DNA from: Candidatus Flemingiibacterium sp.
GTDB lineage: Bacteria; Bacillota; Clostridia; Oscillospirales; CAG-272
Length of the DNA stretch: 64,000 nucleotides
Direction of reading: 5' to 3'
NCBI GenBank assembly: GCA_045586505.1
Contig: JAZNAL010000026.1
Coordinates: forward strand, 11,345 to 75,344
Under the pieces are notes generated by a model, which saw only the letters and a list, made by a program, of their open reading frames with translations, had not been told where the DNA came from and made no database searches. This document shows, piece after piece, positions 17,554-64,000 of the stretch. Position numbers and translations under genes: made by a program. Numbering within the stretch: position 1 is the first letter of the stretch; every line of letters starts with the position of its first letter.

Positions 17554-17585
17554 TAGCTTTACGTTTTAAGAACGTTTTAAGAGAA

Positions 17586-17625
17586 TAACTGCATATACCG
17601 ACCGAAGGGTCGGTATATGCAGTTA
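17586..17625 (+). promoter_or_regulatory. Strong intercistronic stem-loop after the binding-protein gene, with no U-tract
   Basis: A perfect 17-18 bp stem (T)AACTGCATATACCGACC-GAAG-GGTCGGTATATGCAGTT(A). It is followed by TGGCTATAAAAGGA rather than a T-run. Confidence 0.75.
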
Positions 17626-17645
17626 TGGCTATAAAAGGAATTTAT

Positions 17646-18518
17646 ATGGAACTTATTTTATCAACCCTGATAAACGGTCTGAGCCTTGGCGGCATATATG
17701 CCATGATAGCACTTGGCTATACAATGGTTTACGGTATCGCCAAAATGCTCAACTTTGCCCACGGCGATATCATCATGGTCGGCGGATATGTTATATATGT
17801 GTTCATGGCACTTAAAAATCCCCTGCTCGCTATCGCTATGGCAGTTCTTTTCTGCGTCATGCTCGGTATTCTTATCGAAAAGGTGGCGTACAAACCCCTT
17901 CGTGGCGCATCCCCTCTGGCGGTGCTGATCACCGCCATCGGCGTAAGCTATCTTCTGCAGAGCCTTGCACAGATCGTGTTCGGCTCCGCTAACAAAATGG
18001 TCACCGTATACGATTTCGGCTCGGTCAGCTTCCTCGGAGTTACCGTACAGATCTCCGCTCTTGTTACTCTTGCCGTAACTGTTGTCGTAATGATCACGCT
18101 TACCCTTTTCATCAAATACACCCGCCTCGGACGCGCTATGATCGCGGTTTCCGAGGATAAGGGCGCGGCACAGCTCATGGGTATCAACGTTAACGGTATT
18201 ATTACTGTAACCTTCGCCATCGGCTCTGCACTTGCAGCGCTTGCGGGACTGTTCTATCTTCTGAAGGCTCCCAGCATTTCCAGCACTCTCGGCGCAATGC
18301 CCGGTATCAAAGCGTTTACCGCGGCAGTTATCGGCGGTATCGGCTCTATTCCCGGCGCCATGCTCGGCGGCATACTTCTCGGTATGGTTGAGTGCATCTC
18401 CTATAAGATCACCGCTATCGCTCCTTACACAGACGCTATCGAGTTCTCTATACTTATAATCATTCTTCTTGTACGTCCTACCGGATTCCTCGGTAAGAAA
18501 CGGAGGGAAAAGGTATGA
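17646..18518 (+). CDS. livH: Branched-chain amino-acid ABC permease (LivH type)
   Basis: AAGGA lies 7 nt upstream of ATG 17646. The N-terminus MELILSTLINGLSLGGIYAMIALG matches the typical LivH start. The track ATG at 17625 lies inside the hairpin. Confidence 0.9.
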   Translation: MELILSTLINGLSLGGIYAMIALGYTMVYGIAKMLNFAHGDIIMVGGYVIYVFMALKNPLLAIAMAVLFCVMLGILIEKVAYKPLRGASPLAVLITAIGVSYLLQSLAQIVFGSANKMVTVYDFGSVSFLGVTVQISALVTLAVTVVVMITLTLFIKYTRLGRAMIAVSEDKGAAQLMGINVNGIITVTFAIGSALAALAGLFYLLKAPSISSTLGAMPGIKAFTAAVIGGIGSIPGAMLGGILLGMVECISYKITAIAPYTDAIEFSILIIILLVRPTGFLGKKRREKV

Positions 18519-19660: not shown

Positions 19661-20430
19661 TGGCTGATTACATTCTTGAAACAAAGAATCTCGGTATCTC
19701 CTTCGGCGGTCTTAAAGCGGCACAGGATGTGAACATCCGCATAAAGAAGAATCAGATCTACGGTCTTATCGGTCCCAACGGTGCCGGAAAGACCACGATA
19801 TTCAATCTTCTCACAGGCGTTTACAAGCCCACAGCCGGTACATTCTACCTCGACGGCGAGGAGCTTAAGGGACTCGCTCAGGACAAGATAAACGGTAAGG
19901 GAATAGCACGCACGTTCCAGAACATCCGTCTTTTCAACAACATGACTGTAATCAGAAATGTTATGGTTGGTCTGCACAACCGCCCCGAATACAAGTGCAG
20001 TGTTGCAGAGACATTATTCCGTCTTCCCCGCCATTTCAAGGTTGAGAAGGCGATGCGTGAGAAGGCAAAGGAGCTGCTTCGCATCTTTGATCTTGAAGAG
20101 GAGCGCAACAATCTCGCCTGCAATCTGCCTTACGGTAAGCAGAGAAAATTGGAGATCGCACGAGCGCTTGCCACAAATCCGAAGCTGCTGCTCCTCGATG
20201 AGCCTGCAGCGGGCATGAATCCTCATGAAACCGAGGATCTTGTAAAGACCATACGCTTTATACGCGACAGCTTCAATATGACAATACTACTGATCGAGCA
20301 CGATATGAAGTTTGTGTCGGGACTCTGTGACGAGGTCACTGTGTTGAATTTCGGCACGGTGCTTGCGGAGGGCGACACCAAGACTGCCTTAAACGATCCC
20401 GAGGTCATTAAGGCATACATCGGAGGTTAA
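19660..20430 (+). CDS. livG: Branched-chain amino-acid ABC ATP-binding protein (LivG type)
   Basis: The start overlaps the livM stop in TAATG. Walker A is GPNGAGKTT, Walker B is LLLLDEPAAGM, and the protein carries a LivG-type C-terminal extension. Confidence 0.9.
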   Translation: MADYILETKNLGISFGGLKAAQDVNIRIKKNQIYGLIGPNGAGKTTIFNLLTGVYKPTAGTFYLDGEELKGLAQDKINGKGIARTFQNIRLFNNMTVIRNVMVGLHNRPEYKCSVAETLFRLPRHFKVEKAMREKAKELLRIFDLEEERNNLACNLPYGKQRKLEIARALATNPKLLLLDEPAAGMNPHETEDLVKTIRFIRDSFNMTILLIEHDMKFVSGLCDEVTVLNFGTVLAEGDTKTALNDPEVIKAYIGG

Positions 20431-20543
20431 AGTCTGAAAAACGGGGCGTTTTTCAGACAAGGAAGTCTTGTGCCTTTCGCATCTCTTATGCGATTTCCAT
20501 ATGGATACCGGCACAAAACCTCGCAATCGTTGGAAAGGAATGG
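20430..20543 (+). repeat. Intercistronic repeat element, copy A (between livG and livF)
   Basis: By eye it is about four-fifths identical, with one indel, to 39436-39550 in the same orientation. Both copies start aagYctgaaaaa and end gaaaggaatgg. Shared predicted hairpins are described in the findings. Confidence 0.8.
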
Positions 20544-20551
20544 CTATATCT

Positions 20552-21262
20552 ATGGCAATGCTTGAAGTAAAAGACCTTGAAGTCTACTACGGCGTGATCT
20601 GCGCGCTTAAGGGTATCAGCTTCGAGGTAAACGAGGGAGAGATCGTCACTCTCATCGGCGCAAACGGTGCGGGTAAAACCACCACCATGCAGAGTGTCGT
20701 CGGACTTATCCCCACAAGAGCGGGAAGCGTCACCTTTGACGGTCACGACATCACAAAGACTCCCTGCCACAAAATAGTGCATCTCGGTATGACACAGGTG
20801 CCCGAGGGAAGACGCATCTTCCAGGAGCTGACCGTTTACGAGAACCTCCTTATGGGTGCATACTCCATGAAGGATCAGTCGGGCTTTAAGGCGGACATCG
20901 ACGCGGTATATACCCGATTCCCACGCCTTGCGGAGAGACGCAACCAGATCGCGGGTACGCTTTCGGGCGGTGAGCAGCAGATGCTTGCTATGGGCAGAGC
21001 GATCATGAGTCATCCCAAGCTTTTAATGCTGGATGAGCCGTCAATGGGTCTGTCCCCTCTGCTTGTGGATCAGGTATTTGAGATCATCAAGGACATCAAC
21101 AAGGATGGCACCACCATTCTTCTGGTCGAGCAGAATGCGGGCAAGTCGCTTGCGATCTCCGACCGAGCATACGTGCTGGAAAACGGCAGGATCGTCCTCA
21201 CCGGTACAGGTACGGAGCTTGCCGCAAGCGAGATGGTCAAGAAGGCTTATCTCGGCGGCTGA
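20552..21262 (+). CDS. livF: Branched-chain amino-acid ABC ATP-binding protein (LivF type)
   Basis: MLEVKDLEVYYG... with Walker A GANGAGKTT and Walker B LLMLDEPSMGL. The start is ambiguous among ATG 20540, 20552 and 20558. The track start at 20468 reads through the non-coding repeat element. Confidence 0.85.
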   Translation: MAMLEVKDLEVYYGVICALKGISFEVNEGEIVTLIGANGAGKTTTMQSVVGLIPTRAGSVTFDGHDITKTPCHKIVHLGMTQVPEGRRIFQELTVYENLLMGAYSMKDQSGFKADIDAVYTRFPRLAERRNQIAGTLSGGEQQMLAMGRAIMSHPKLLMLDEPSMGLSPLLVDQVFEIIKDINKDGTTILLVEQNAGKSLAISDRAYVLENGRIVLTGTGTELAASEMVKKAYLGG

Positions 21263-36720: not shown

Positions 36721-36852
36721 TCAGTTATCCGCGATCAGCTTTGCCGTTTGAGCGCAATCACGATCAGCGGTATCAGTCCACTCACGCAGTACGGCGATAA
36801 GCTTTGCTCCTATCCTGCCGCCCTGACCGTCGATTATAACTGTCTTCTTCAT
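36721..36852 (-). CDS. 43-codon ORF resembling only the N-terminus of DUF3842-type proteins (possible gene remnant)
   Basis: The ATG overlaps the amidohydrolase stop in TAATG. MKKTVIIDGQGGRIGAKLIAVLRE resembles, from memory, the M-x-I-x-VIDGQGGGIG start of DUF3842 proteins, which are about 120-140 aa. Here the ORF stops after 43 codons. Confidence 0.35.
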   Translation of the reverse strand: MKKTVIIDGQGGRIGAKLIAVLREWTDTADRDCAQTAKLIADN

Positions 36853-37652
36853 TATTTATTCCCCAACAGCTTTATGGCATTTTCGCTACAGATTTTCTTC
36901 ATCAGCTCATCGGATAGTCCGAGGGATTCAACATACTCGTGGCCAAGATTCATTCCATACCACGGGAAGTCGCTGCCGAACAGTATTTTCTCGGGATCGT
37001 GATTGTTAAGCATCCGCGCATATTTGACAGGCTCAAGCCCGAACATCGGTGCAAGAGAGGTCTCGATCCACAGATTCTTTCCGATAAGCAGTCGCTCCGC
37101 CTCATCCCACTGCTTGCAGGCGCCCATATGCGCCGCGATAAATCTCAGCTCGGGGAATTTTTTCAGCACGTTAAGTATCCGCTCAGGCGTGCAGTGAATG
37201 AGATCGGGGGAGATAAAATCCCAGCCGGAATGAGTGATCAGAAACAGATCGTTTTCGATGCAAGCCTTGTATATGGGATCAAATTTCGCATCGTCCACAA
37301 GTACGCCCATGTAGTCGGGATGTATCTTGATGCCGCGGATACCGGCATCCGCAAGACGTCGCGCCTCCTCTGCGATATTATCGCTGTCGGGGTTAAGCGA
37401 GCCCAGCGCGTACAGTCGGTCATAGTTGGAATTGACCTCGATGGCGAAATTGTTGACATTTGTCTGCTGCTTTGGATTTGTGGCAATATTAAGTATGACC
37501 GCGCGGTCGATTCCCCACTCATCCATGCGGGAAATGAGGCTTGATACAGTACCGTCACCGTATGCTTCGATTCCGCCGATGCCCGCGAGCTTGGGGATCG
37601 CCTTTTCGGCGACCTTATCGGGAAATGCGTGGGTATGAAAATCTATTATCAT
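36852..37652 (-). CDS. Amidohydrolase-2 family TIM-barrel metal-dependent hydrolase
   Basis: The N-terminus MIIDFHTHAFP supplies the metal-binding HxH. Later conserved His/Asp residues lie in GIKIHPDY, ITHSG and FGSDFPW. Confidence 0.8.
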   Translation of the reverse strand: MIIDFHTHAFPDKVAEKAIPKLAGIGGIEAYGDGTVSSLISRMDEWGIDRAVILNIATNPKQQTNVNNFAIEVNSNYDRLYALGSLNPDSDNIAEEARRLADAGIRGIKIHPDYMGVLVDDAKFDPIYKACIENDLFLITHSGWDFISPDLIHCTPERILNVLKKFPELRFIAAHMGACKQWDEAERLLIGKNLWIETSLAPMFGLEPVKYARMLNNHDPEKILFGSDFPWYGMNLGHEYVESLGLSDELMKKICSENAIKLLGNK

Positions 37653-37937: not shown

Positions 37938-39422
37938 ATGGAGAACAAAACGCAAAACAGTATGCCGAATGTTATCTCGGCTGCAGAGCTGCGTGCGATC
38001 GCCGAGAGTGAAGCATCCACCGCAAAAAGCCGCATCACAGCACTTTTTGACGCAGGAACCTTCGCTGAGACAAGTGCTTTCGCGCACAAGCTTGCCGCAG
38101 AATTCGGCGGTAGCGACAACGGCGAGCTTGAAGGCGTAGTTACCGGCTACGGTGCTATCGACGGCAGACTCGTATTCGCTTTCGTTCAGGATTTTTCCAG
38201 AATGAAGGGCGCAGTAGGCGCTATGCACGCAAAGAAGATCTGCGCGCTTTACGACCTCGCTGTGAAGAACGGCGCACCCGTGATCGGTATTTTCGACAGC
38301 GCAGGTGCTTATGTTATGGAGGGCGTTGAGGCTCTCGCAGGCTACGGTAAGATCATGAAAAAGGTATCCGATGCTTCCGGCGTGATTCCTCAGATTGCAG
38401 TTATTGCAGGCAACTGCGGCGGTGCTATGGCTACTGTGGCATCCATGTTCGATATCACCGTCGGCGCCAAGACCGGTGCTTTCTATGTAAATCCCCCCTT
38501 CGTATTAAACGAGCTTGACAAGAAGGCTGAGCTCGGTAAGATCGAGACCGCGGCAAAGAGCGGTCAGATAAGCGTAGTATGCGACACCGACACCGATGCG
38601 CTTGCATACGTAAGAAAGCTCCTTTCCTACATTCCTCAGAACAACGCGGACGGTACCGCTTACTCGGCTACCACCGACGAGATCAACCGTCTCACCCCCG
38701 ATGTTGCATCCATTATTGCATCCGAGGGCTACAAGATGGCAGACGTCATCTCCGCAATCTCCGATGACGCCGCATTCCTCGAGCTTTCGGAAGAGTATGC
38801 AAAGTCCATGCTCACCGGCTTTATTACGTTAAACGGCATGGTAGTCGGAATCGTCGCAAACAATCCCGCACACATCGGCGGCAAGATCTGCGGCGGTGCG
38901 GCTAAGAAGGCGGCAAGATTCGTTTCCTTCTGCGACTGCTATAAGATCCCGCTTCTCACACTCGTTGACACCGAGGGCTACGAGGTATCCGTTGAGGCTG
39001 AAAAGGCTCAGTACGGTGCAGCTCTTGCAAAGCTCGCTTCCGCATACGCATCAAGCGACAACGCGAAGGTTACCGTAGTGCTGGGCAAGGCTTACGGCGC
39101 GGCTTACACCCTCATGGGCTCTAAATCCATCGGCGCGGATATCGCACTTGCTTGCGAGACCGCCAAGATCAGCGCAATGCCCACAGCGAGCGCAGTCGCT
39201 TTCGCTTGGAACGACAAGGTCACCGACAACGCAAAGCGCGGTGAAGTCGAGGCACAGTGGGACAGCGTAATGGCATCTCCCGTCGTTGCCGCAAAAGCAG
39301 GAGAGATCGACGACATCATTTCTCTTGATGAGCTTCGTCAGCGCGCATCCGCCGCATTTGAAATGCTCGGCGCAAAGAACGCACTTTGCCAAAAGAAGCT
39401 CCACAACAACCTTCCTTTATAA
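37938..39422 (+). CDS. Acyl-CoA carboxyltransferase subunit (MmdA/GcdA/PccB family; divergent)
   Basis: GGAGG lies 7 nt upstream. It has two carboxyltransferase half-domains: GAVGAMHAKKICALYDLAVKNGAPVIGIFDSAGAYVMEGV and PLLTLVDTEGYEV...GKAYGAAY. The usual DSGGARIQEG block reads DSAGAYVMEG. Confidence 0.8.
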   Translation: MENKTQNSMPNVISAAELRAIAESEASTAKSRITALFDAGTFAETSAFAHKLAAEFGGSDNGELEGVVTGYGAIDGRLVFAFVQDFSRMKGAVGAMHAKKICALYDLAVKNGAPVIGIFDSAGAYVMEGVEALAGYGKIMKKVSDASGVIPQIAVIAGNCGGAMATVASMFDITVGAKTGAFYVNPPFVLNELDKKAELGKIETAAKSGQISVVCDTDTDALAYVRKLLSYIPQNNADGTAYSATTDEINRLTPDVASIIASEGYKMADVISAISDDAAFLELSEEYAKSMLTGFITLNGMVVGIVANNPAHIGGKICGGAAKKAARFVSFCDCYKIPLLTLVDTEGYEVSVEAEKAQYGAALAKLASAYASSDNAKVTVVLGKAYGAAYTLMGSKSIGADIALACETAKISAMPTASAVAFAWNDKVTDNAKRGEVEAQWDSVMASPVVAAKAGEIDDIISLDELRQRASAAFEMLGAKNALCQKKLHNNLPL

Positions 39423-39435
39423 TCGGGAGGGCATA

Positions 39436-39550
39436 AAGCCTGAAAAATGGATCATTTTTCAGACAATTAAGTTTTGTGCCTTTTGCATCTTCCATGCGAA
39501 TTTCCAAACGGAAACCACCACAAAACTTCATATTCGTTAGAAAGGAATGG
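39436..39550 (+). repeat. Intercistronic repeat element, copy B (between the carboxyltransferase and gamma-subunit genes)
   Basis: It is homologous to 20430-20543 in the same orientation, with the same hairpin layout and the same GAAAGGAATGG end. Confidence 0.8.
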
Positions 39551-39921
39551 TCATAAAAATGACTATAAATCCGCTTTTCCTTACCGAAGTCATCAAATAT
39601 GATGAACCTATGAGCTTTGCTGACGCCATCCCCTTTGGTCTTGAGACCGTGATTCTCGGCATGGGCGTAATTTTCTCGGTACTCATCATTCTTTGGGCTG
39701 TGCTTTCGGTGTTCAAGCTTGTATTCTACAAAAAGCCTTCCGATGTCTCTGAAGCTCCGGCACCCGCTCCCGCCCCTGCAGCAACTGCTAAGCCAGAGCC
39801 TGCCACCGCAGCCGATGACGCGGAGCTTGTAGCTGTCATCACCGCCGCCATCGCTGCTATGATGGACGCTCCCCAGACATCCTTCAGAGTCGTATCCTTC
39901 AGACGTACGGCAAAAAAATAA
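39547..39921 (+). CDS. Na+-decarboxylase small membrane subunit (OadG/MmdD type)
   Basis: A single TM helix (LETVILGMGVIFSVLIILWAVLSVF) is followed by an Ala/Pro-rich linker, and the gene lies in a decarboxylase operon. The start is ATG 39547 or ATG 39559 (MTINPLF). Confidence 0.7.
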   Translation: MVIKMTINPLFLTEVIKYDEPMSFADAIPFGLETVILGMGVIFSVLIILWAVLSVFKLVFYKKPSDVSEAPAPAPAPAATAKPEPATAADDAELVAVITAAIAAMMDAPQTSFRVVSFRRTAKK

Positions 39922-61769: not shown

Positions 61770-64000
61770 ATGGCAGAAACCAAGAAAAATCAGACTAAAA
61801 TAAGCAGTCTCGCAAAGGATCTCGGCCTCAAGAACAAGGATCTTTTGGAGGTACTGTCCGCAAGCGGCATTGACAGCAAGTCACATTCCGCCTCCCTTGA
61901 CCCCGAAGAATTCAATCTCGTGATGAACGCACTCACCGAGCGCGCTCAGATAGACAATATCGGCGATTATCTTGACGGCAAGGCTAAGATAATCGTTGAA
62001 TCCCCCAAGCCCAAAGAACCTAAGAAGGAAGCTCTGACAGCTGAGGAGCCTAAGAAGGAAGCGCCCAAAGCCGAGGAGCCCAAGAAGGAAGCTGCCAACA
62101 TCGAAGAAGCCAAAAAGCCTGCTCCCAAGGCTGAGGAACCTAAGAAAGAATTCCCCAAGCGCGATGATAACCGTCCGCAAGGTACGCAGCCCCGCGATAA
62201 CCGTAGCGGTAACCGTCCCCAGGGTGGATTCCAGCCCCGCGATAACCGCGACGGTAACCGTCCCCAGGGTGGCTTCCAGCCCCGCGATAACCGCGACGGC
62301 AACCGTCCTCAGGGTGGATTCCAGCCCCGCGATAACCGCGACGGCAACCGTCCTCAGGGTGGATTCCAGCCCCGTGATAACCGCGACGGCAACCGTCCTC
62401 AGGGTGGATTCCAGCCCCGTGATAACCGCGGTGGCAACCGTCCCCAGGGTGGCTTCCAGTCTCGCGACAACCGCTCTCAGGGAGGCTTCGGCGGCGGATT
62501 CAAAGATAAGGATTCCGGAGGCGAGCGTCGCAGCAACAAGACCCGCGAGCCGATACACACCTATACCCGCGGTCAGAATGCCGGCAAGAATACCGGTGAG
62601 AGCCGCATAGTCGATATGCGCACCACCACCGTCGATCTCGACAAGTACGACGAGCGCCTTGAAAATCTCGCTACCGAGACCGGCAAGAACGAGCGCGGCG
62701 AAAAGCAGAAGCTCAAGAAGCAGAACAACCGCGACGGACACAGCCAGCGTGAAAAAGAGCGCATGGCTATGGAAAAGCTTCGCAAGCAGGGCATCGAGAA
62801 GGCTAAGAAGCAGCCGCTTCAGATCACCGTTCCCGATGAGATCTCCGTCGGCGAGCTGGCATCCCGCCTCAAAGTCACCGCGGCAGAGGTCATCAAGCGC
62901 CTCATGCTCCTCGGTGTTATGGCAACCGTTAATGAAGTCATCGACTACGACACCGCATACCTTGTTGCCGATGAGCTTGGTGCAAAGGTGACAAAGGAAG
63001 TCGTTATCACTATAGAAGAGCGTCTCTTTGACGAGGCAGAGGATAAGGAAGACGATCTCATTCCCCGCAGTCCCGTTGTCTGCGTAATGGGTCACGTTGA
63101 CCACGGCAAGACCTCCCTGCTTGACGCTATCCGCCATACCAATGTTACATCAGGCGAAGCAGGCGGTATTACCCAGGCAATCGGTGCATATCGCGTACGT
63201 CTCAACGATCGCGACATCACCTTCCTTGACACCCCAGGTCACGAAGCGTTCACCTCCATGCGTGCACGCGGCGCTAAGTCCACCGATATCGCGATCCTCG
63301 TTGTAGCGGCAGACGACGGCATCATGCCCCAGACCGTTGAGGCGATCAACCACGCTAAGGCGGCAGGCATTGATATAGTAGTTGCAATCAACAAGATGGA
63401 TAAGCCCGAGGCAAACCCCGATGTGGTTAAGCAGGAGCTTACCAAATATGAGCTTGTTCCCGAGGAATGGGGCGGCGATGTCATCTGTGTTCCCGTATCG
63501 GCGCTCACCGGTATGGGTATCGATGACCTCTTGGAGAATCTTCTCCTCGTTGCGGACATGAAGGAGCTCAAGGCGAACCCCAACCGTCGCGCAAAGGGTC
63601 TTGTACTTGAGGCAAAGCTCGACAGGGGACGCGGTCCCGTTGCAACCGTGCTCGTTCAGAACGGTACGCTCAATACGGGCGATATCGTGATCGCCGGTAC
63701 CGCCGTAGGTCGTGTCCGCGCAATGACTGACGATAAGGGCAGAACCGTTAAGAATGCAGGACCTTCCGTGCCTGTTGAGATCATCGGTCTCTCCGAGGTT
63801 CCCGAATCCGGTGACGAGTTTGCGGCAGTCGAAGACGAGCGTATGGCTCGTGAGCTTGCCGAGCAGAGACGCGAAAAGGCGAAGAATGAGCAGTTCAAGG
63901 CTAACGCCAAGGTCAACCTTAACGACCTGTTCGCTCAGATCTCCGAGGGCATCAAGGACCTTAATATCATCGTCAAGGCAGACGTGGGCGGCTCCGCTGA
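61770..64000 (+). CDS. infB: Translation initiation factor IF-2 (3' end beyond the window)
   Basis: The ORF runs from ATG 61770 to the window end. It is absent from the ORF track because no stop falls in the window. The G-domain is [17 protein letters not shown] (G1), DTPGHEAF (G3) and NKMDK (G4). The N-terminal region is repetitive. Confidence 0.93.
62187..62489 (+). repeat. In-frame 45-bp tandem repeats within infB (six near-identical units plus one degenerate unit)
   Basis: The units start at 62187, 62232, 62277, 62322, 62367 and 62412. Each encodes QPRDNR(D/S/G)GNRPQGGF, and neighbouring units differ by only a few bases. A degenerate unit follows at 62457-62489. Confidence 0.9.

Follow-up and report, generated by a model that had tools for sequence, protein, structure and literature searches.

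Between the carboxyltransferase gene and oadG of a decarboxylase operon, and again between livG and livF, the DNA analysed here contains a copy of one repeated sequence of about 120 nt, which in both places runs up to the start of the downstream gene. What kind of sequence is this, what would it do to the translation of the gene that it precedes, and how might it have arrived there? The window (the whole 64 kb stretch of DNA that was analysed) holds exactly two copies of this ~120-nt element, copy A at 20430–20551 and copy B at 39436–39558 (window coordinates are on the + strand unless marked otherwise); they are 78% identical across an alignment of ~125 nt, and each sits after an upstream stop codon and before the next gene. 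Both are full length by alignment and score 128 bits (copy A) and 145 bits (copy B) with covariance model R1, which was built on five long copies, and with its filters off the model found no third copy in the 64 kb. Conserved sub-patterns of 25–32 nt (≤3 mismatches) match only copies A and B, and none is expected from 100 shuffles. Since CATAAA stands on either side of copy B, its left edge is uncertain by ~3 nt and its right edge by ~6 nt; copy A is the most divergent copy of the family, with ~78% identity to each other copy. A weak match of the model at 17561–17654, in the gap between a periplasmic-binding-protein gene and livH, is an ordinary long hairpin and not a member; its perfect arms (AATAACTGCATATACCGACC / GGTCGGTATATGCAGTTAT, 17575–17625) look like an ordinary intra-operon attenuator or stabiliser. 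Repeats of another sort are found at 61998–62501, where 30- and 45-nt tandem units would encode a Glu/Pro/Lys-rich (EPKKEA-like) stretch.

The coordinates that a sequence-only reading of this DNA had given for copy B were all correct on re-reading: the carboxyltransferase stop TAA is 39420–39422, similarity to copy A begins at 39434–39436, and the terminus shared by the two copies (AGAAAGGAATGG, 39539–39550) contains ATG 39547. For copy A the livG stop TAA is 20428–20430 and the shared terminus is GGAAAGGAATGG at 20532–20543, containing ATG 20540. That reading had also remarked that the livF reading frame extends back through the element to 20468, which is indeed where the six-frame ORF starts (with TTG), and that a second in-frame ATG follows the first after 12 nt in both operons, which it does (39559 for copy B and 20552 for copy A). 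One refinement is that the element reaches ~8 nt beyond the end coordinate given there, and its tail, ATGGTYATAW, is also conserved, to 1–2 nt before the true start codon.

Comparison with homologues indicates which ATG begins each gene. All 20 of the OadG homologues compared begin at the residue encoded by 39559 (MTINP...), and no homologue has the 4 extra residues that ATG 39547 would add; LivF is 236 aa long in 114 of 120 homologues among the matches listed, the length obtained from a start at 20552, and an element-free allele of livF (below) starts ATGGCAATGCTTGAAG. Thus oadG (OAD_gamma, PF04277) occupies 39559–39921 and livF (ABC ATPase) 20552–21262. The ATGs within the element (39547–39549, GGAATGG, in copy B, where it abuts the Shine–Dalgarno sequence (SD), and 20540–20542 in copy A) lie only 0–1 nt after the SD; in copy C the corresponding ATG, in another frame, begins an ORF of 3 codons, and copies D and G do not have it. 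Judged by these alignments, ATGs 39547 and 20540 are decoys, and the earlier idea that each operon has two alternative starts does not survive the comparison. The suspicion that the element distorts start-codon calling was well founded, since the public annotation of the 80,071-bp source contig (NCBI) gives livF 240 aa (P0245, start at the decoy, 20540) versus 236 aa in almost all listed homologues, and the 236-aa form is missing from the protein collection; the oadG call on that contig is correct (120 aa, P0001). Of the proposal that the element supplies both an SD and a start, the first half stands, with the SD present in 7 of 7 complete copies, and the second half falls, the ATG being 0–1 nt from the SD and the homologues starting later. 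That the element carries a translation-initiation region with it was nevertheless a sound observation: besides the SD, ATGG is found in 5 of 7 complete tails as a candidate ATG, and the region is absent from orthologues that have no element.

Those orthologues define the insertion. At oadG the window carries the element and L001, L002/L003 and L004/L005 do not; their carboxyltransferase–oadG spacers are 15–16 nt long and their junctions read TTTATAATTGGGGGGACATAAAAATGACC, ...TCGGAGGGACTAAATATG and ...GAGGGAGGACCAACAATG. Both flanks recur in the window, TTTATAATCGGGAGGGCATAAA on the left and CATAAAAATGACT on the right, but ~117 nt apart. Because both flanks match the element-free orthologues, GGGAGGG at 39425–39431, which is collinear with the orthologues' SDs (TTGGGGGGACATAAAAATG, TCGGAGGGACTAAATATG and GAGGGAGGACCAACAATG), is the native SD of oadG, now stranded ~128 nt from the start codon. 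At livF, too, the window carries the element; the site is empty in L064–L068, where LivF is 97% identical and the livG–livF gap is 4 nt. There the junction reads GGAGGCTAAAGTT-ATGGCAATGCTTGAAG, and in the window it reads GGAGGTTAAAGT, then the element, then TATGGCAATGCTTGAAG; the native SD of livF, GGAGG at 20422–20426 within the last livG codons (GGAGGCTAAAGTTATGGCAATG in the empty allele), is stranded 5' of the element. An empty site is also present in the window, between the stop of an Amidohydro_2 gene and the start of the next gene (GGGGAATAAATAATG, 36850–36866, − strand), and it is filled in the relative L001, in which a copy cut off at the contig end (L001:37-1(-), GGGGGATAAAG-TCTGAAAAATGGGTCATTTTTTAGAC..., 31 bits with R1) follows the Amidohydro_2 gene. 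With oadG and livF filled in the window and the Amidohydro_2 site filled in L001, the element is therefore polymorphic in both directions between relatives. This L001 sequence, a Logan contig of the closest oadG relative, stops 37 nt into the element copy (L001:1-37), an apparent assembly break at a repeat that suggests several copies in that genome.

Orthologous operons lacking the element had been named as the comparison that could expose the shared end as a coincidence. With the 4 nt and 15–16 nt spacers, GAAAGGAATGG is missing too, from every one of the empty alleles, and the shared end is therefore part of the insertion. The position of the native SD had been missed by the sequence-only reading; since the native SD is stranded just 5' of the element, this is an insertion into the SD-to-ATG spacer and something beyond a mere intercistronic spacer element. 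The closest homologues of the OAD_gamma protein downstream of copy B are from uncultured Clostridia and Oscillospiraceae MAGs. In one of the element-free relatives an integrase / VapE-like / HTH cluster (L004:3340-6732, a prophage-like or island remnant) lies just 5' of the decarboxylase operon, and the window has no equivalent.

The family is a small one, known from 8 sites in 4 genomes, the two in the window and six in three other uncultured Clostridia genomes; these six were located with DNA patterns containing no gene information. A scan of one genome per GTDB species with 20 bases that run from the end of the first hairpin of the element (P1) into its second stem (P2) yielded a further three copies, two of them in 'uncultured Clostridia MAG28' (CAJGCT01) and one in a Ca. 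Flemingiibacterium MAG (JAZNUF01). A hairpin-only metagenome scan gave 21 loci, 16 of them unrelated hairpins and 5 true, the latter all from MAG28's metagenome; it re-found earlier copies and added two short forms. The genome and metagenome scans detect only copies that keep the exact P1-region pattern. Two pattern scans of viral contigs returned 34 loci, among which the covariance model recognised no family member, and BLAST against plasmids and phages in distant mode gave no match to the element. The five long copies, from three genomes, are 78–89% identical and score 128–151 bits with R1, the short copies score 47–61 bits and the cut-off L001 copy 31 bits. Measured to the start codon the element is 122–126 nt long (the long form is ~120 bp and the deletion forms are ~60 bp). 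The short forms (~60 nt, L009:3056-3124 and L014:11190-11128, 5' of aroQ-like and DJ-1-like genes) retain P1 and the SD tail and lack the three-way junction described below; one of them looks like the product of a deletion between ACAA repeats. The repeat family is real and has no entry in Rfam 15, which at gathering threshold gave 0 matches in the 64 kb on both strands. It occurs in a narrow group of uncultured gut Clostridia and was previously uncatalogued.

Across these sites the position and orientation of the element are fixed, and what varies at orthologous sites is its presence or absence. It has the same orientation as the downstream gene at 8 of 8 sites, and at all eight an SD-like purine run (GGAGG, GGGAG, GGGGG or similar) ends 3–9 nt before the hairpin; at all three sites with an empty allele this run is the gene's native SD. 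On the other side, the start codon of a real ORF follows the AAGG of the tail by 12–14 nt in each of the seven complete copies. The genes that follow the element are of unrelated kinds (LivF, OadG, an AEC-type transporter, a RumA-like methyltransferase, a TauE-like protein, AroQ and a DJ-1-like protein). Operon-internal sites make up at least four of the eight (A, B, F and H), and in each of them an upstream same-strand ORF ends at or just before the element; sites E and G have a same-strand ORF 35–40 nt upstream (at E across a terminator-like hairpin), and sites C and D have a promoter or terminator region upstream. At two sites the upstream ORF now terminates at a TGA within the element's GUCUGA.

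Each copy is predicted to fold into the P1 hairpin, then a three-way junction, then a mostly single-stranded tail, and on the + strand folding is stronger than in shuffled sequences (z = −3.4 for copy A and −4.3 for copy B). P1 of copy B is predicted as a perfect 12-bp hairpin with a 3-nt loop (CCUGAAAAAUG / CAUUUUUCAGA, 39438–39464), and P1 of copy A lies at 20432–20458; the arms common to the copies are CUGAAAAA.../...UUUUUCAG. The three-way junction of copy B (39469–39528) has P2 (AAGUUUUGUG / CACAAAACUU) around P3 (39484–39498) and P4 (39501–39514), and in that of copy A (20463–20521) P2 has two A/C mismatches. Consensus stems are AAGUYUUGUG/CACAAAACYU for P2, GCAUC/GAUGC for P3 and UUUCC/GGAAA for P4, and 96% of cells over five copies are paired. 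Covariation is thin, with double changes in 2 of 33 pairs among 5 near-identical copies: one P1 pair is C-G in three copies and U-A in two, and P3 has a single A-U to G-C double change, in L008. A strand preference deduced from wobble/mismatch asymmetry has 2 cases each way. The tail reads ...UCGUUAGAAAGGAAUGGUCAUAAA, with ATGG directly after the SD; the element's SD is AGAAAGGA at 39539–39546 in copy B, 12 nt 5' of the true start, and by alignment of the copies GGAAAGGA at 20532–20539 in copy A. Within the tail there is an 8-nt match to the anti-SD end of the 16S rRNA, taken as the usual Bacillota 16S 3' end. No reading frame is open across all copies, and we set aside a coding role for the element. 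A consensus-only scan, to which weak promoters could be invisible, found no sigma-70-like promoter and no terminator-like site inside either window copy, and P1 is not followed by a U-run, so we also set aside a promoter or terminator role.

We consider it quite probable that the element is a small, non-coding, non-autonomous dispersed repeat which sits in-sense after the SD and ahead of the start codon of its host gene and whose tail supplies a replacement SD. Insertion between SD and ATG displaces the native SD ~120 nt upstream, and the tail (AGAAAGGA-ATGGTYATAW) gives a substitute SD 12–14 nt ahead of the native ATG, which is left untouched. The 5' two-thirds of the element would be transcribed within the mRNA, where its predicted self-folding would leave the new SD mostly single-stranded, and translation of the downstream gene would then rely on the element's SD. 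The distance from stop to start grows from 4–16 nt to ~120–136 nt, and termination–reinitiation coupling should therefore weaken. Because the replacement site has an AAGGA core at long spacing to the ATG, it could be a weak one. The hairpin domain may in addition affect mRNA processing or stability. The element might also, as the sequence-only reading proposed, set the stoichiometry of the downstream subunit; computed opening energies of the ribosome-binding site do not differ systematically between filled and empty alleles and so point to neither a rise nor a fall in output. Initiation regions might be chosen as the target, or copies might be retained there by selection. The stronger form of the first option, that this is mobile DNA which targets translation-initiation regions, entering 1–2 nt before start codons, after the SD and in-sense, and survives by virtue of the substitute SD, is possible, but on balance we doubt it.

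The ends of the element, AAGTCTGAAAAA on the left and GGAATGGTCATAA on the right, are not complementary, terminal inverted repeats are absent, and target duplication is inconsistent: copy A shows none when filled and empty alleles are compared, and copy B is flanked by CATAAA on either side. A MITE identity is ruled out by the lack of terminal inverted repeats and of a fixed-length target-site duplication, and a precise target-site duplication by junctions that differ between sites. Of the features expected of IS200/IS605 or REP/RAYT units, a left hairpin is present, AA precedes every left junction and there is a weak right hairpin; among the loci that were fetched no transposase turned up. 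With no inverted termini, consistent duplication or transposase partner, mobility is read from the filled and empty alleles only. Candidate routes are a hairpin-recognising single-strand transposase acting in trans and microhomology-mediated copying. Upstream of copy G (L014:11128-11207, − strand) lies a near-copy of its own tail, with 16 of 17 nt the same (AAAGGAAGGGTCATAAG versus the tail's AAAGGAAGGATCATAAG), and this arrangement may reflect serial insertion beside the tail of an older, degraded copy.

A second, different insert of ~117 nt is present at the same livG–livF junction in another lineage (L069:9899-10015, L070:7012-7131, L071, L072, L073:9655-9771 and L074–L076). It is predicted to form three hairpins (z = −3.0), ends GGAATGGAGGAAAAGACA-ATG (also given as GGAATGGAGGAAAAG), and goes with LivF calls lengthened to 241 or 251 aa (by 5 or 15 codons); it is unrecognised by R1 and was seen at this one site only. 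Its presence hints that inserts which replace a ribosome-binding site (RBS) could be a recurrent class in these Clostridia.

Could the element instead be the relic or miniature of an HUH (IS200-IS605) or REP/RAYT-type transposon, mobilised in trans through recognition of P1 and found at ribosome-binding sites because a short A-rich target combines with selection? The perfect hairpin beside a left end that always follows ...AA, the uniform orientation and the absence of terminal inverted repeats and of a regular target duplication all suit such an origin, as does the finding that copies B and E, from different genomes, are 87% identical, above the 78% of copies A and B within one genome; a published review describes IS200/IS605-end hairpins that persist as independent intergenic units in Borrelia. 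Yet the fetched loci contain neither a transposase gene nor a longer element that shares the hairpin, the hairpin-only metagenome scan gave just the short and long forms of the element plus chance matches, and the right end has no strong hairpin, only a weak 4–5-bp CAT/ATG one. A target motif of 2–3 nt, moreover, cannot by itself explain why 8 of 8 sites, with 7 complete copies, fall between an SD-like run and a start. We regard this origin as rather unlikely; it concerns the mode of spread only and is compatible with the explanation by RBS replacement. Another rival is a cis-regulatory RNA (a riboswitch, thermosensor or protein-binding leader), in which the three-way junction would sense a signal and toggle the tail SD through CCUUUC/GAAAGG pairing. 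The junction strand CCUUUC of the long copies is complementary to the tail SD (in copy B it is CCUUUU, and pairs via G-U), the minimum-energy fold of copy E in its genomic context pairs this strand with the SD in place of P2, the junction sequences are highly conserved, and TD-1, a weakly similar spirochaete motif in Rfam, is described as usually 5' regulatory. Recent common descent (78–89% identity) accounts for the conservation, however, the downstream genes share no function or pathway, and the same genes in relatives manage without the element. Computed SD opening energies are low and inconsistent (0.2–4.6 kcal/mol), and the 2 of 33 covarying pairs fall short of what marks a riboswitch. 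A switch is conceivable but disfavoured, and in our estimation improbable, because the two short copies without a three-way junction still hold the hairpin and SD tail at gene starts and the genes downstream are functionally unrelated.

A small RNA from the opposite strand, as has been proposed for Rfam TD-2, would make the antisense product the functional one, and there are signs of it in copy A, whose minus strand folds better than its plus strand (z = −5.6 versus −3.4) and whose two A/C mismatches in P2 become G-U there; TD-2 also gives weak antisense matches to copies B (20.8 bits) and E (20.4 bits). These scores are far under the 48.7-bit gathering threshold (E is ~0.6 although only 241 nt were searched), Rfam searches by E-value on copies A, B, C and E brought up nothing besides these two TD-2 matches, with none for A or C, two wobble pairs (one in P3 of copy B, the other in P1 of the L001 copy) favour the plus strand, and neither strand has a promoter-like or terminator-like site within the copies. 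An antisense RNA would also leave the fixed sense orientation and the SD/ATG geometry unexplained, and we think it very improbable. That the two window copies are alike by chance, or through ordinary conservation of similar ribosome-binding regions, has a negligible probability: their flanks are indeed both SD-like and A-rich, and ATCGGAGG, for example, precedes each copy and is native at both places, but 78% identity over 125 nt has no match in shuffled sequence, related copies elsewhere score 128–151 bits, and orthologues have empty alleles, which together refute it.

The replacement-SD repeat that we favour has relatives by kind, of which Neisseria REP2 and Borrelia IR-A appear nearest by analogy, with the MIRUs also close. 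REP2 (CREN) is 120–150 bp long, has no terminal inverted repeats and has 5' stem-loops; it carries a 3' ribosome-binding site and ATG immediately 5' of unrelated ORFs, occurs in a few dozen copies or fewer per genome, and also carries a promoter, serving as a 5' regulatory cassette for contact-induced genes (Delihas 2011, PMC3184786). By description, then, our element resembles REP2 in being multi-copy, 122–126 nt long and without terminal inverted repeats, and in having P1 and a three-way junction followed by AGAAAGGA-ATGG at the 3' end. It differs in having no promoter-like site, in being operon-internal at at least four of eight sites, and in being wedged between an existing SD and ATG, so that the gene keeps its own ATG. 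Borrelia IR-A shares the same plan (a 120–150-bp repeat whose termini are not inverted, with stem-loops at the 5' side and an RBS and ATG at the 3' side, directly before ORFs); IR-A and IR-B, again compared by description, are unlike the element in being plasmid-borne and containing a promoter. MIRUs are 40–100-bp units that lie in operons and are co-transcribed with the polycistronic mRNA, with filled and empty sites between species and with ends that touch the flanking stop and start codons. Small ORFs within them form a bridge between the genes on either side, and they are arranged in tandem with short direct repeats, whereas our element has no frame open in all copies, stands as one unit per site and carries an SD.

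The Rfam motifs TD-2 and TD-1 of Treponema denticola (RF03162, clan CL00124), to which no function has been assigned, are like the element in being multi-copy and confined to one lineage; TD-1, which TD-2 overlaps in antisense, is like it also in its usual position directly 5' of genes that are unrelated. From one end to the other, the TD-2 consensus can be aligned with the antisense strand of copies B and E, the stems CUGAAAA/UUUUCAG and GUUUUG/CAAAAC being common to both, and the element differs in having a three-way junction in place of a simple hairpin. Given the sub-threshold scores above, we take the resemblance as a lead to a distant relationship or to convergence, short of membership. 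Enterobacterial repeats of the REP/BIME and ERIC type are transcribed as hairpins between cistrons and can alter the relative expression of their neighbours. They lie after stop codons, and are not known to have a positional tie to the next start or to supply an SD.

For those who work with these genomes the element is a practical matter, since it misleads gene callers (livF of the source genome is called 4 codons too long) and interrupts short-read assembly (one contig stops within a copy). It also constitutes a natural experiment, in which a gene within an operon has had its ribosome-binding site swapped and its distance from the upstream stop codon stretched, and for which element-free alleles exist in close relatives. 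If targeting and not selection accounts for its position, it would be a mobile element able to home to initiation regions and to make up for its own damage, a strategy of which Neisseria REP2 and Borrelia IR-A are only loose forerunners. Should the target indeed be the initiation region, these Clostridia would harbour a selfish element with a built-in 'RBS patch', one that could rewire the translational coupling of their operons.
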